47,564 nucleotides of DNA from the sequence record KX523699.2. One strand, given 5' to 3'. A program made the position numbers and the translations under genes. The notes beneath the pieces are model-generated. The model ran no database searches. It worked only from the letters and a program-made list of their open reading frames with translations, and was not told where the DNA came from. This document shows, in pieces, positions 23,029 through 44,954 of this stretch; position 1 is the first letter of the stretch, and each line of letters starts with the position of its first letter. The DNA comes from Salmonella phage IME207.

Positions 23029-23399
23029 ATATGCTTGAACTGGTTGATGCATATCTTCAGGATGCCGGATTGTATGATGGCTGGACTTCGCAGTTGCAGT
23101 TCTGGAATGATACCGGAGATGGTGATGATCAATTCATTGTTCTGCAAACCAATGGTGGCACGCAGGTGATGGACTCCCTCGGCGGGGATTTCTATTTCTC
23201 GTTGTATATTGTCGGCAAACATGGACAGTATAACGTGGCGGATGTTGATGCGAAGGCCAATGAGATTATCGAATACATCAAGACGCATCCGATTGATTCA
23301 TGCGTTAACTACATCCAGTTGCAAGCGCCGCTGGGTAGGCCAATGCTGACGGAAGAAAAAAGACCAGTGCATGAACTGCTATTGCGTGTTATGAAATAA
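23025..23399 (+). CDS. putative tail terminator protein
   Basis: 124 aa, last before the major tail transcription unit, followed by a terminator. Confidence 0.4.
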   Translation: MNMLELVDAYLQDAGLYDGWTSQLQFWNDTGDGDDQFIVLQTNGGTQVMDSLGGDFYFSLYIVGKHGQYNVADVDAKANEIIEYIKTHPIDSCVNYIQLQAPLGRPMLTEEKRPVHELLLRVMK

Positions 23400-23402
23400 A
23401 TA

Positions 23403-23427
23403 AAGCCGCACGAGGCGGCTTTTAATT
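23403..23427. terminator. rho-independent terminator
   Basis: AAGCCGCACGAGGCGGCTTTTAATT. Confidence 0.65.
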
Positions 23428-23601
23428 ATCTTTTTCTTTTATTGAGCTAACCACATCATCAAATGACTCGAACCTTCCGGCATAACCTCCATTGGCAAGA
23501 CTAACTACGTACCATTTGTTAATCATTGATATAGAAGCAATGCGCCTGTTGTGGTTGTCAGCGATTCTCCAGTAATCATTATGGATTTGCTGGATTGTCA
23601 T
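23422..23601 (-). CDS. hypothetical protein
   Basis: ORF 23422-23646 trimmed to the internal ATG (MTIQQIHNDYW) because the longer form overlaps tRNA-Arg. Confidence 0.3.
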   Translation of the reverse strand: MTIQQIHNDYWRIADNHNRRIASISMINKWYVVSLANGGYAGRFESFDDVVSSIKEKDN

Positions 23602-23616
23602 CGGAATTTCCCGAAC

Positions 23617-23692
23617 TGGCACACCATGCAGGACTCGAACCTGCAACCAATAGCTTAGAAGGCTACCGCTCTATCCGTTGAGCTAATGGTGT
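23617..23692 (-). tRNA. tRNA-Arg (anticodon UCU)
   Basis: Folded by hand: acceptor ACACCAT/ATGGTGT, D stem GCTC/GAGC, anticodon loop CTTCTAA, T-loop TTCGAGT. CCA is encoded. 76 nt. Confidence 0.8.
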
Positions 23693-23698
23693 TTAATG

Positions 23699-23786
23699 TG
23701 GCGGATAGTACAGGATTCGAACCTGTGAACCGTTTCCGGTTTATCGGTTAGCAACCGACTGCTTTCGGCCTCTCAGCCAACTATCC
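23699..23786 (-). tRNA. tRNA-Ser (anticodon GCU), long variable arm
   Basis: Acceptor GGATAGT/ACTATCC, anticodon loop TTGCTAA, variable arm ACCG-GAAA-CGGT, T-loop TTCGAAT. CCA is encoded. 88 nt. Confidence 0.8.
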
Positions 23787-23789
23787 GTT

Positions 23790-24247
23790 GATTTAGTGCT
23801 GGTTTAAGCATTGCCAGCGTGCTTTCTTAATATCCAGCCCCGTAACCCATACATACCCCTACATATGATTGCGATAATGCTGGATATTAAGTGTTGTGGT
23901 GGCCGGTGCTGATCTCCGGCTTGCGGTTATTTCAGACTCTCACGGGCGTTTAATTGCCCCGCCGAACAGCTCTTTTCCGCAATAGCTGCAATGTCTTTCG
24001 CGCATCAGCCTGCGCATTCATCACAACGGTAAGAGCACTGATGCGCTCACTTGGTACTCCTTATCCATAACCCACGGGCTTCTGGTACACCAATGCTCTT
24101 ACCTGTTGTGTGCCGGTTACGCGTCCGGCGTCTGTCGACCGCTAATTATTTTGACCTCTTCAAATTGAGATTTCATTCATTTTGGTCACCTTCCTTTCAG
24201 AAAGTTGAAAACTCACGCATAAATCAATTCATATCTTAAGTAGACTT
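23790..24247. other. 458-bp ORF-free structured non-coding region
   Basis: 13-bp perfect inverted repeat CTTAATATCCAGC/GCTGGATATTAAG at 23827-23839 and 23880-23892. 10-bp inverted repeat GGTAAGAGCA/TGCTCTTACC at about 24026 and 24104. The only ORF here (24051-24239) has no RBS. Confidence 0.35.
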
Positions 24248-24295
24248 TAATCTACACCACAAAATAATCACTGTCAACACCTGTGATATAATCAC
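24248..24295 (+). promoter_or_regulatory. late promoter for major tail gene
   Basis: AATCTACACCA at 24249-24259, TGTCAACACC, and extended -10 TGATATAAT at 24284-24292. Confidence 0.55.
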
Positions 24296-24328
24296 CACGT
24301 TAGCAGCTAACACAATTCGGAGATCGAA

Positions 24329-25048
24329 ATGGCTATTTGTGCAAATGATAAAGGCGTTCTGGTCGGTCGTATGACCCGACTGTTCCTTGCTGAGGGGTGC
24401 GGTGATGCAGTTCCAGAGGCGGTAGACTGGAAATATTTAGGCTCAACCACCAGTAAAGGTGTTGACTACTCGCCACAGACCACTACGTCGGAAGCGGATA
24501 CCGCTGGCGGTTTTGTTTCCACTCTCGTTACCAGCTCTGATATGACCATCAGTGCAGAGGTGGAAATCCGCAAGAATGACCCAAGCGATGAGTTTGGCTT
24601 CCATCGCCTGGTTGAGATTTACGCCACTGAACTGAAAGCGCGTCGCCAGCCTTCCTTGTGGGTGCGTCAGGTGACTGGTGCAACTATCGTTACAGCGTAC
24701 TGCAACATCACCAGCATCAGCTACGAAGGTGGCACGAACGACATTGTGACTGGCAGCCTTGAGTTCAAGGTTTACGATTCTGACAGCGTTACCGTCGAAA
24801 GCCTTGAGCCTCTGGCGTTCACCACCGACCTGCGATCAACTGGCAGCACTGGCAGTCCGTTAACTGTTGCTGTTGAAGGTGGCGTTGCTCCTTACACTTA
24901 TGTATGGCGCAAAGATGGCGTGGTTGTCGGCAGCGAATCAGGCGCATCTCTGGCAAGCCCTACCGCTGGCGTGTATACCGTCACAGTTACGGATTCATCT
25001 ACTGACCCTGAAATCATCATCAGCACGGCTTGCACCGTATCCTGGTAA
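24329..25048 (+). CDS. major tail protein with C-terminal Ig-like domain
   Basis: 239 aa. The C-terminal ~90 aa (TVAVEGGVAPYTYVWRKDGVVVG...YTVTVTDS) look Ig-like. GGAG RBS. Followed by a terminator. Confidence 0.65.
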   Translation: MAICANDKGVLVGRMTRLFLAEGCGDAVPEAVDWKYLGSTTSKGVDYSPQTTTSEADTAGGFVSTLVTSSDMTISAEVEIRKNDPSDEFGFHRLVEIYATELKARRQPSLWVRQVTGATIVTAYCNITSISYEGGTNDIVTGSLEFKVYDSDSVTVESLEPLAFTTDLRSTGSTGSPLTVAVEGGVAPYTYVWRKDGVVVGSESGASLASPTAGVYTVTVTDSSTDPEIIISTACTVSW

Positions 25049-41384: not shown

Positions 41385-42338
41385 ATGAGATACGACTGGA
41401 AAGACATTGAGCCAAAAATGATTGGCAACTGGCAGGCAGCCATCATGTCTATCGTCAATGTGGATAGCAGAGTTTTCAACGGCAAGCACCAACCATGCCC
41501 GTCATGCCTTGGCAAAGACAGGTATCGTTTTGATGATAACTTCGAAACAAAAGGCGATGGCGGTGCAATCTGCAATCAGTGCGGTTCCGGCAGCGGAATG
41601 AACTGGCTGATGAAACTCTCCGGAATGAGCTTTCCTGAAGCACTTGAGGCACTTGGTGGATTCCTGAATATGCACCCGCGCGAAAAACTGGAGGCAATCA
41701 GGAAGGAATTACCGAAGATAAATTACAACGATGACTTCATCACCGAGCAGGAAGTCGCAGCAATCATGTCTAAAACGACTCGTGTCGCGATGAATGAGTG
41801 GACTTTGATAAATGGTATTGGTTGCGACGTTAACGTCGTCAGAGGTAAATCTGGGGAGCTTATTGCGGTTGAGATGATGCATGCTGACACAATGAAGCCG
41901 TGCAACGTGGCATTCATTGGCATGGATGGTGATTCATTCAGAGCTTTTTTCCGCGCAGGATACAACAAAGACTCAGCCATCAACGGAAAACTCACACGTG
42001 GCGCGATAAGTCCAATCGGAGAAGACAACGGAAAGTTCATTTACCTGGTATCTGATTATGCCGATGCGTGGAAGTGCCATTACTTCACTGGCGCGCATGT
42101 CTGGTGCTGCTGGTCGCCGGAAAACATGTGGGAAGTGGTGCGATCGGTTAGCGATGAGATGAAAGCACGGTTGCGTTGCATAGTTAATTATAAATTCGAC
42201 GAACTGTGCGCTGCGGAAAACGCAGGGCTTCCGGTGATGCTGCCTGATGATGCGGACACAATAAGGATGGCGAAGCGGATCAGAAGAAGGATTTATGACG
42301 CTGGCGAGTTGATAGAGAAAATGTCAGTTAGAAGATAA
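41385..42338 (+). CDS. DNA primase-like zinc-binding protein (P4-type zinc-binding domain)
   Basis: CPSCLGKDRYRFDDNFETKGDGGAICNQCGSGSGMNWL. Internal ATG at 41385. Plus-strand gene inside a minus-strand module. Confidence 0.5.
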   Translation: MRYDWKDIEPKMIGNWQAAIMSIVNVDSRVFNGKHQPCPSCLGKDRYRFDDNFETKGDGGAICNQCGSGSGMNWLMKLSGMSFPEALEALGGFLNMHPREKLEAIRKELPKINYNDDFITEQEVAAIMSKTTRVAMNEWTLINGIGCDVNVVRGKSGELIAVEMMHADTMKPCNVAFIGMDGDSFRAFFRAGYNKDSAINGKLTRGAISPIGEDNGKFIYLVSDYADAWKCHYFTGAHVWCCWSPENMWEVVRSVSDEMKARLRCIVNYKFDELCAAENAGLPVMLPDDADTIRMAKRIRRRIYDAGELIEKMSVRR

Positions 42339-44681: not shown

Positions 44682-44954
44682 TTAGACCTCGTACTCTGTT
44701 GCAAATTTCTCATGAGGATTTTCTGATAACCATTCCTTTGCTCTCAAAACTGCAGCGTTTGCTTCCTCTGCCGTTTCAAACATACCAAGCTCATATCTTT
44801 TCTTGAGTACCATCACTCTCGCTCTGAATTTTTTCGATGCCTTGTGGTAATCAACACCGTAGTATCCAGTGGTTGATTTTGATGATGCAACCCACCCAGC
44901 ACCACGACCATGTTTGTTTAGTTTGCGCTTTAATAATACACCGTGATTGCTCAT
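44682..44954 (-). CDS. stand-alone AP2-domain DNA-binding protein
   Basis: GYYGVDYHKASKKFRARVMVLKKRYELGMFETAEEA is an AP2 fold like the HNH C-terminal domains. First gene of the leftward early operon. Confidence 0.55.
   Translation of the reverse strand: MSNHGVLLKRKLNKHGRGAGWVASSKSTTGYYGVDYHKASKKFRARVMVLKKRYELGMFETAEEANAAVLRAKEWLSENPHEKFATEYEV

Follow-up and report, generated by a model that had tools for sequence, protein, structure and literature searches.

A gap upstream of the tRNA genes of Salmonella phage IME207 appears to be the hairpin-built front of a leftward RNA unit and carries a hairpin found in unrelated phages

What lies in the 458-bp gap (positions 23790-24247) beside the two tRNA genes of Salmonella phage IME207? 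The window examined here is the sequence record KX523699.2, a stretch of 47,564 nucleotides (47.5 kb). The first-pass annotation, made from the sequence, had described the gap as free of open reading frames (ORFs), with two inverted repeats, and had proposed that it could encode a structured non-coding RNA, a degenerate intron or a tRNA remnant, or be a regulatory landing site. This interpretation proved right in part: the gap appears to be the untranslated front of a leftward RNA-only unit built of interchangeable hairpin modules. It had overlooked which strand matters, that the gap belongs to an operon, and that the 10-bp repeat marks a family of hairpins spread across unrelated phages.

Both inverted repeats are present. 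The first pairs CTTAATATCCAGC (23826-23838) with GCTGGATATTAAG (23879-23891) at 13 of 13 positions, and its loop, described earlier as about 40 nt, is exactly 40 nt. The second pairs GGTAAGAGCA (24028-24037) with TGCTCTTACC (24094-24103) at 10 of 10 positions as described, but its loop measures 56 nt rather than about 68 nt; it lies at the centre of a longer stem in which CACAACGGTAAGAGCAC (24022-24038) pairs with TGCTCTTACCTGTTGTG (24094-24110) around one bulged base. When 23790-24247 was shuffled 300 times with its dinucleotides preserved, perfect repeats of at least 13 turned up once, those of at least 10 six times, and two of at least 10 together never, which makes both repeats improbable by chance. 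Either strand gave a better fold than its shuffles did (z = -5.0 for the minus strand and -4.4 for the plus strand). The repeats correspond to two hairpins:

24022..24110, minus strand: hairpin A, 5'-CACAAC-A-GGUAAGAGCAUUG-(apical domain)-CAGUGCUCUUACC-GUUGUG-3'
23826..23891, minus strand: hairpin B (the 13/13 repeat), a 13-bp stem with a G-tract-rich loop of 40 nt

Hairpin A, which holds the 10/10 repeat, has a stem of 20 bp with a bulged A and an apical domain of 49 nt; three further pairs are predicted beyond the 20-bp stem. A degenerate pattern of its arms retrieved at least 119 viral contigs, and at least 99 distinct hairpins were found (viral contigs among the matches listed, and other loci) in phages and prophages of Enterobacterales. 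In RNA sense the family consensus is 5'-CACAAC-A-GGUAAGAGCAUUG...CAGUGCUCUUWCC-GUUGUG-3', a helix of 19-20 bp with one bulged A, and the arms of hairpin A match it without a mismatch. The arms are near-invariant in the family, and the 33-82 nt between them belong to dozens of unrelated sequence types. The carriers span lambda, P22-like, P1-like and N4-like phages and the siphovirus group of IME207; the lambda member (44,787-44,862) begins 7 nt past the T-run of the terminator tR' and scores 57.4 bits with R1, a covariance model built from the family arms. The same model scores hairpin A at 53.8 bits on the minus strand versus 33.8 bits on the plus strand, a preference of 20 bits, and hairpin A is its only full match in the window, present in one copy. 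A weak match at 42024-42052 on the minus strand (15.5 bits, E = 0.08) is probably due to chance.

To what extent is this stem an RNA structure? Among 81 distinct arm pairs, 94.1% of the base-pair cells are paired, with double-sided changes at 8 of the 19 pairs; slid controls pair at 35-65%, and none of 500 shuffles reached the observed value on any of five measures. Read in minus-strand sense, the cells hold 163 G.U against 24 A.C. In the phages that share the apical type of hairpin A, the stem itself changes from AAGAGCA/UGCUCUU to AAUAGUA/UACUAUU. Taking together the G.U excess, the covariation of the arm pairs and the strand preference of R1, these comparisons indicate that the family stem is an RNA helix on the strand of the tRNAs. 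Changes in the 5' arm slightly exceed those in the 3' arm; a boxA constraint was considered as the cause and rejected, since wobble tolerance accounts for the excess. The earlier proposal of a structured non-coding RNA is thus supported for both repeats, each being a minus-strand RNA helix with compensatory and G.U-intermediate changes in relatives; conservation of the repeats among relatives, whose absence the first-pass annotation had named, beside that of a transcript, as refuting its reading, was found for both.

The apical domains vary in sequence and retain pairing. In the lambda-type apex a 5-bp helix occurs as GCAGA/UCUGC, GUCGA/UCGGC or GCCGA/UCGGC. The apical type of hairpin A recurs in IME11, 24-32N and CU10EC, which are N4-like, as well as in HC6, ST1UNAM and SEzh_1, and shows a compensatory change from CCA/UGG to CCG/CGG, and a T-arm-like type occurs as GUAGAG/CUCUAC, GCAGAG/CUCUGC and UCAGAG/CUCUGA. 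A canonical UUCRANY T-loop hairpin is present in 16 of 99 apical domains (among the matches listed), and some apices (among them P1-like L006 2632-2718 and L054/L072) form a tRNA-like body with acceptor, D-arm and T-arm and no anticodon arm; a body with D-arm and T-arm is also found in the inter-hairpin block of Skatevirus phages. The apical domain of hairpin A itself is not tRNA-like. Judged by these patterns of change, the apical domains are under selection.

Hairpin B lies outside the family defined by R1. It was found in 138 phage records, all of them Salmonella, Escherichia and Shigella siphoviruses of approximately 45-48 kb, mostly at 95-100% identity, the 40-nt loop included, and is thus a lineage-specific conserved hairpin. 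It is preceded by CACAACA (23898-23892), the sequence with which hairpin A begins, and occupies the same kind of slot, directly past a '...CCA' end. At stem position 6 the pair is U-A in IME207, C-G in DS8, CECAV_048, S192 and SeSz-2, U.G in HC6 and C.A in VSt472; the U-A, U.G and C-G states are consistent with a wobble intermediate, and other substitutions in the stem give U.G only in minus-strand sense (alignments A1 and A4). The loop has three G-tracts in IME207 (GGGG, GGG, GGGG) and four in Shigella phage DS8 (L183), through an extra UAUGUAGGGG. When the loop was scanned for duplexes against the whole window, the best energy was -37 kcal/mol versus -30 to -34 kcal/mol for shuffled queries, which is not clearly better.

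The minus strand is the functional strand of the gap and the strand of the two tRNAs. The first-pass annotation had placed the gap after the tRNA genes; it does adjoin them, but since both are on the minus strand the gap lies upstream of them. Minus-strand transcription is presumed because the constraints on RNA structure are on that strand, and the following features, in the direction of transcription and together with hairpins A and B, appear to form one leftward unit:

24249..24277, minus strand: predicted sigma-70 promoter, -35 TTGACA at 24277-24272, spacer of 17 nt, -10 TAGATT at 24254-24249
24130..24242, minus strand: variable 5' leader, not conserved in relatives (alignment A1)
24112..24129, minus strand: small hairpin GCCGG-ACGCGUAA-CCGGC, seen in folds, 1 nt before hairpin A
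23892..24021, minus strand: inter-hairpin block of approximately 130 nt, with the tail hairpin at its start and GCCGG-AGAUCAGCA-CCGGC-CACCA at its end
24000..24015, minus strand: tail hairpin GCGCA-GGCUGA-UGCGC, the commonest 3' extension in the family
23798..23818, minus strand: small hairpin GCUGG-CAAUGCUUAAA-CCAGC, which follows hairpin B and is conserved with it
23699-23786, minus strand: tRNA-Ser(gct), by ARAGORN and the Rfam tRNA model
23617-23692, minus strand: tRNA-Arg(tct), by ARAGORN and the Rfam tRNA model
23601-23422, minus strand: ORF of 59 amino acids (MTIQQIHNDYW...), phrog_35112, function unknown (E = 1e-42), between tRNA-Arg and the terminator
23402-23422: bidirectional intrinsic terminator from the terminator scan, which closes the leftward unit

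The order of the unit would therefore be promoter, leader, hairpin A, block, hairpin B, tRNA-Ser, tRNA-Arg, 59-amino-acid ORF and terminator, and the unit appears to sit antisense between plus-strand structural genes. The promoter matches the sigma-70 consensus at 10 of 12 positions and is invariant in five related phages, with similarity stopping straight after the -10 element (alignment A1); transcription would start near 24242. Back to back with it lies the plus-strand promoter region of the tail genes, whose extended -10, TGaTATAAT, was read from the sequence at 24284-24292. Both promoters fall within an 82-bp stretch that is invariant in the five phages, and, as they overlap, they may compete for RNA polymerase. 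This overlap is also the sole support for the regulatory landing site suggested in the first-pass annotation. The leader contains a mini-ORF of six codons, MNEISI (AUG AAU GAA AUC UCA AUU UGA, 24180-24160 on the minus strand), 8 nt past a Shine-Dalgarno-like AAGGAAGG (the element spanning 24160-24195, minus strand), and it is not conserved in relatives. The small hairpin ahead of hairpin A is also present in NX263 and CECAV_048. With the Rfam tRNA model the two tRNAs score 57.5 and 69.9 bits, and the 59-amino-acid ORF, when called mechanically from a TTG start at 23646, extends into tRNA-Arg. Phages of Skatevirus and Deseoctovirus have an intrinsic terminator directly after hairpin B and the GCUGG...CCAGC hairpin, and their unit contains no tRNA that is full-length or called by ARAGORN, although one record annotates a 58-nt tRNA-Ser. 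As these units end without a full-length tRNA, the hairpin RNAs would be products in their own right, more than a tRNA leader. From this comparison the leftward unit looks basically like a non-coding RNA gene to which the IME207 line added two tRNAs and a small ORF before the terminator.

We then asked where the family hairpins sit, using 131 loci for tRNA orientation and 122 distinct contexts for the flanks (both among the matches listed). All of the tRNAs called by ARAGORN (116 of 116, a count that includes many near-identical P1-like loci) are on the RNA strand of the hairpin, in P1-like, lambdoid, N4-like and siphovirus settings. A hairpin begins 1-2 nt past the 3' end of a tRNA in 15 of the 122 contexts, the distance being 1 nt in 14 of the 15, and overlaps the 5' end of the next tRNA in three. 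A terminator T-run precedes the hairpin in 25 contexts and a small hairpin ends 1 nt before the stem in 59, while 86 contexts have an RUGAAY tail after the hairpin, usually followed by the covarying hairpin GCGCA-GGCUGA-UGCGC, whose variants GCACA/UGUGC, ACGCA/UGCGU and ACGUA/UACGU retain pairing. Hairpin A has the flanks typical of the family, with the small hairpin at 24129-24112 on its 5' side and, on its 3' side, the RUGAAU tail and 5-bp hairpin as AUGAAU plus GCGCA-GGCUGA-UGCGC at 24021-24000. A 9/9 inverted repeat, GCGCATCAG / CTGATGCGC (24000-24008 and 24038-24046), would pair the 3' end of the apex with the tail hairpin; this alternative fold excludes both the apex and the tail folds and is kept wherever the apical domain of hairpin A occurs.

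Several other carriers place the element in untranslated leaders. HK633 and IME10 carry it between Q and the holin gene, as part of the late leader, and mEp460-type phages have it in a pL leader of approximately 700 nt that lacks N, where one copy lies ahead of an intrinsic terminator and another directly behind it. The mEp460 locus (L005, 2305-3029) and loci L007 and L011 have some 700 nt of non-coding DNA between cI and the first early-left gene, with no N there; this leader holds a boxB-like CCUGG-GAAGAGA-CCAGG, two divergent family hairpins, the shared block and the intrinsic terminator. At L066 (2710-2786, minus strand) a match to the Rfam small RNA (sRNA) isrJ (60 bits) ends in a terminator with a family hairpin immediately next to it, the same layout as lambda 6S RNA, tR' and hairpin; by analogy, IsrJ may be the short transcript of a prophage, of the pR'-tR' type. 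The N4-like phages CU10EC (L008, 1560-3630) and 24-32N (L176, 1385-2943) have non-coding stretches of 1.5-2 kb crowded with family hairpins and with many sequences of a T-arm plus ACCA, tRNA-like, that ARAGORN does not call. In species-representative bacterial genomes all copies other than that of lambda are in Enterobacterales, except one on a 4.2-kb scaffold. Another 21 matches, from unrelated taxa such as Pseudomonas, Enterococcus, Bradyrhizobium and Segatella, reproduce the hairpin of lambda at 100% identity and lie mostly on tiny contigs or on contigs of approximately 48.4 kb (L133, L134, L140, L142 and 17 further loci); these copies are most likely contamination with lambda control DNA. 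A miniature inverted-repeat transposable element or insertion sequence was rejected as the nature of the element: the arms carry no target-site duplication, the orientation is strictly that of the tRNAs and the 47.5 kb contain one copy.

The inter-hairpin block adds a history of recombination to this picture. Positions 23892-24039 are 95-98% identical to unannotated DNA of lambdoid phages (mEp460, Stx2 phages) and of P1-like JL22. Of 5426 complete E. coli genomes, 938 carry this stretch, in chromosomes and in plasmids, some of approximately 86-102 kb. Positions 24000-24112 are 95% identical to N4-like CU10EC, and 24090-24328 match NX263; the P1-like and lambdoid similarity ends at 24039 and that to NX263 begins at 24090. 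On these alignments the leader is a recombinant mosaic with its junctions inside the conserved arms of the 10-bp repeat. The end of the block is followed by the CACAAC of hairpin B, and its two ends can pair, GUUGUG(R)UGA with UCA(Y)CACAAC. This closing helix, a competitor of hairpin A's basal 6 bp, covaries, with A-U in P1-like members, G-C in the mEp460 type and U.G at one locus; in IME207 it has A.C mismatches, as a recombinant would be expected to have. 

Counterpart blocks in P1-like phages match the Rfam family STnc100 (RF02076) at 34-42 bits, over model positions 31-147 and against a gathering score of 47, whereas the IME207 window gave no STnc100 match in 23300-24500 at E <= 10. The terminator scan found no terminator directly after the IME207 block. 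STnc100 and PasD are related prophage sRNAs encoded near Q, and the Pas sRNAs were detected through Hfq with RIL-seq (bioRxiv 10.64898/2026.05.13.724894). The likeness to STnc100 and PasD includes a shared niche, the untranslated early and late leaders that lie near Q and tRNAs in lambdoid and P1-like prophages, and the frame of the IME207 block, with UGUGAUGAAUGCG and a hairpin at its 5' side, a CCGG...CCGG hairpin and CACCACA at its 3' side and a covarying closing helix. The differences are that the matches of the relatives stay below the gathering score and cover the central domain only, that the IME207 block has neither a match nor a terminator, and that the conserved-stem hairpin lies outside the STnc100 model.

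The remaining readings of the gap as a gene or a known RNA were examined with the same sequences. Its longest ORF has 62 amino acids, on the plus strand with a TTG start, and no ORF of at least 25 amino acids in the gap matched Pfam or PHROGs, so the description as ORF-free holds in practice. A protein-coding gap was rejected, the ORFs of the gap and the tested Bas81 and mEp460 ORFs over the homologous stretch being without a Pfam or PHROGs match; a minus-strand ORF of 25 amino acids in the shared block was rejected as well, its start lying in a motif beyond which the other members have unrelated sequence. ORFs annotated as hypothetical proteins opposite to the RNA strand, over hairpin leaders, occur in Bas81 (L003, 1695-2036 and 2170-2526) and likewise at L005 2563-2931, L002 2073-2186 and L184 443-610. 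Three of these, two in Bas81 and one in mEp460, were examined, have no Pfam or PHROGs support and are probably not genes. An Rfam scan of 23300-24500 at E <= 10 gave nothing credible in 23790-24328, on which a group I or II intron and any other Rfam ribozyme or riboswitch were rejected; the earlier idea of a degenerate intron found no support. ARAGORN and the Rfam tRNA model recovered only the two adjoining tRNAs and none in 23790-24247, and the suggested tRNA remnant was set aside, although tRNA-like pieces do fill equivalent slots in related phages. Permissive Rfam scans of the window and of the lambda, mEp460, P1-like and N4-like loci showed no family that covers the hairpins, and a literature search for the arm sequences or a description of the element returned nothing relevant, older subscription literature lying outside that search. 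The family is thus apparently an unannotated RNA hairpin element; its breadth, which includes lambda, and its scaffold-plus-cargo design came as a surprise.

Taking into consideration that the helices are packed end to end with tRNAs, that the two-turn stem is fixed and its cargo interchangeable, and that the hairpins are strictly placed at RNA ends, we favour, tentatively, the hypothesis that the hairpins are cis-acting punctuation for the processing and stability of a transcript with several stable RNAs. Transcription would start at TTGACA-17-TAGATT and run through the hairpins, tRNAs and small ORF to the terminator. Each hairpin would fold independently, occupying one 'tRNA slot', and would set the positions at which host nucleases cut between adjoining stable RNAs. 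RNase III would be the likely enzyme at the two-turn stem, and at the adjoining tRNAs RNase P or RNase E would act. The stem-closed ends left by cutting would resist exonucleases and the 5'-end-dependent attack of RNase E, the dense structure would leave no long unstructured RNA for Rho loading, and the fixed stem would serve variable small RNAs as a common scaffold for their release and protection. Substrates of E. coli RNase III fall in the size class of helices of approximately two turns, to which hairpin A, with 20 bp and 3 predicted pairs, belongs. Several points weigh against this hypothesis. The processing role is deduced from sequence comparison; the promoter is a consensus match, and its conservation could belong to the overlapping tail-gene promoter; and the independent contexts behind the 116 co-oriented tRNAs are far fewer than that count. 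No result links the stem to RNase III in particular. A pure stabiliser or nuclease site is not obviously in need of near-invariant arms across unrelated phages, and such arms point to a sequence-specific partner or to spread by recombination; the strong conservation of the 40-nt loop in hairpin B suggests a role past punctuation.

Some of these points lead to other explanations. The modules may be trans-acting sRNAs, regulators or decoys that the stem merely presents and protects, with the apices, the hairpin B loop and the block acting on host or phage targets as Hfq sRNAs such as STnc100 and PasD do; in a variant, they would mimic the tRNA elbow and titrate a tRNA-binding host factor or defence nuclease. 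We regard this as possible though not likely. It would fit apices that are hypervariable yet covary internally, 16 of 99 with a T-loop and several with tRNA-like bodies lacking the anticodon arm, the STnc100 matches of 34-42 bits in P1-like blocks, a hairpin B loop that is 95-100% conserved in 138 phages, and a unit that is a stand-alone non-coding RNA gene in relatives without full-length tRNAs. However, the IME207 window has no STnc100 match at E <= 10 and no terminator after the block, the duplex scan of the hairpin B loop against the window was not clearly above shuffles, no partner protein or target was identified, and the anticodon-less mimics belong to relatives and not to the IME207 window. 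Doubtful too is the idea of exchangeable 'RNA cassettes' common to very different enterobacterial phages, in which a universal stem scaffold for processing and protection would display dozens of small RNAs, tRNA mimics lacking the anticodon arm among them; these would be functional effectors, for example decoys or regulators against host tRNA-handling or defence factors, swapped by recombination in the arms.

Recombination by itself is an improbable explanation. If the arms were homology linkers acting as DNA between unrelated phages, with RNA structure incidental and the region mosaic filler, the homology breakpoints in the arms (24039, 24090 and the CU10EC stretch 24000-24112), the mismatched closing helix of the block, as in a hybrid of two types, and the identical arms bordering dozens of unrelated inserts and flanks would all be accounted for. 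Yet compensatory changes and 163 G.U versus 24 A.C in one orientation are RNA signatures, recombination needs no strict co-orientation with tRNAs and transcription, the apical domains and hairpin B covary too, and no target-site duplication was read at the arms. It is equally hard to see in the modules Nus-factor sites of the boxA/boxB type that make RNA polymerase Rho-resistant on untranslated RNA, and we consider this unlikely in spite of a 3' arm reading CAGUGCUCUUU/A, close to which stand the rrn boxA, CACUGCUCUUUAACAA, and the lambda boxA, CGCUCUUA. A covarying 5-bp hairpin 14 nt past the arm gives a boxA-spacer-boxB layout, many members follow small hairpins with GAAAGA or GAAGAGA loops resembling lambda boxB loops, and members occur in untranslated read-through leaders (in lambda past tR', and in the N-less pL leader of the mEp460 type, around an intrinsic terminator). 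The boxA-like segment is nevertheless locked in the 20-bp helix, order and spacing are unlike rrn and nut sites, an N-like gene did not turn up, though no search aimed at one was made, and pairing is conserved rather than boxA sequence: P1-like members pair GUACCCUUACC with GGUAAGGGUA and others have UGCCAUUAUC or UACUAUU with compensating partners. In IME207 the segment, UGCUCUUA at 24037-24030, is base-paired, and relatives swap segment and partner together, for example UACCCUUA with UAAGGGUA. Very improbable, finally, is that the gap has no RNA role at all and is a decayed gene, the remnant of a tRNA or intron, or a DNA site of the tail promoter to which a protein binds; the equivalent stretch of related phages does bear annotations of hypothetical ORFs or of a 58-nt 'tRNA-Ser', and the leftward promoter does overlap the tail promoter region, but there are no Pfam or PHROGs matches and no match to a tRNA or intron model, the helices are under selection, and an arm spacing of 33-82 nt is unfit for a dimeric DNA-binding site.

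The processing hypothesis can be placed beside known systems. The rRNA leader-trailer helices and the R sites of T7 are RNase III stems in untranslated or polycistronic transcripts, and the family resembles such stalks in that a helix of approximately two turns, with bulges or mismatches, brackets a stable RNA; it differs in having a local helix, with 33-82 nt between the arms, whose sequence stays fixed in unrelated phages, and in its small, interchangeable cargo. Stable non-tRNA RNAs of phage tRNA clusters, such as the species 1 and 2 RNAs of T4 and the M3 RNA of phi80, are small structured RNAs, transcribed together with phage tRNAs and processed by the enzymes that mature these. Their likeness to the hairpins is one of general description, and no stem scaffold common to them is known. 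With lambda nut and rrn boxA-boxB sites the family shares a UGCUCUU(U/A) core, a 5-bp hairpin behind it and a place in untranslated read-through leaders, and the difference is that the boxA-like segment of the family is paired and varies with its partner, with another loop and spacing. Some members in relatives resemble YrlA or Y RNA (RF02553), with a long stem made by the two ends and a tRNA-like domain of D-arm and T-arm, whereas most apices, that of hairpin A included, are not tRNA-like. The Rsr-binding motif of these RNAs is GNCGAAN0-1G (PMC4201824). A Y RNA was rejected: this motif is absent from hairpin A, and the Rfam YrlA matches overlie true tRNAs only (in the window, at 19.7 bits) and fall on none of the hairpins.

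If the processing hypothesis holds, a recurrent, apparently unannotated RNA element would be present in well-studied phages, in lambda past tR', in P1 beside tRNA genes and in hundreds of E. coli prophages, and for annotation it argues against the hypothetical ORFs called over the hairpins in several deposited genomes. The copy in lambda makes the hypothesis directly testable with existing genetics. The element would account for the content of the long 'empty' leaders around phage tRNA genes, for the processing of tRNA and small-RNA modules out of phage transcripts and for the movement of these modules between unrelated phages.

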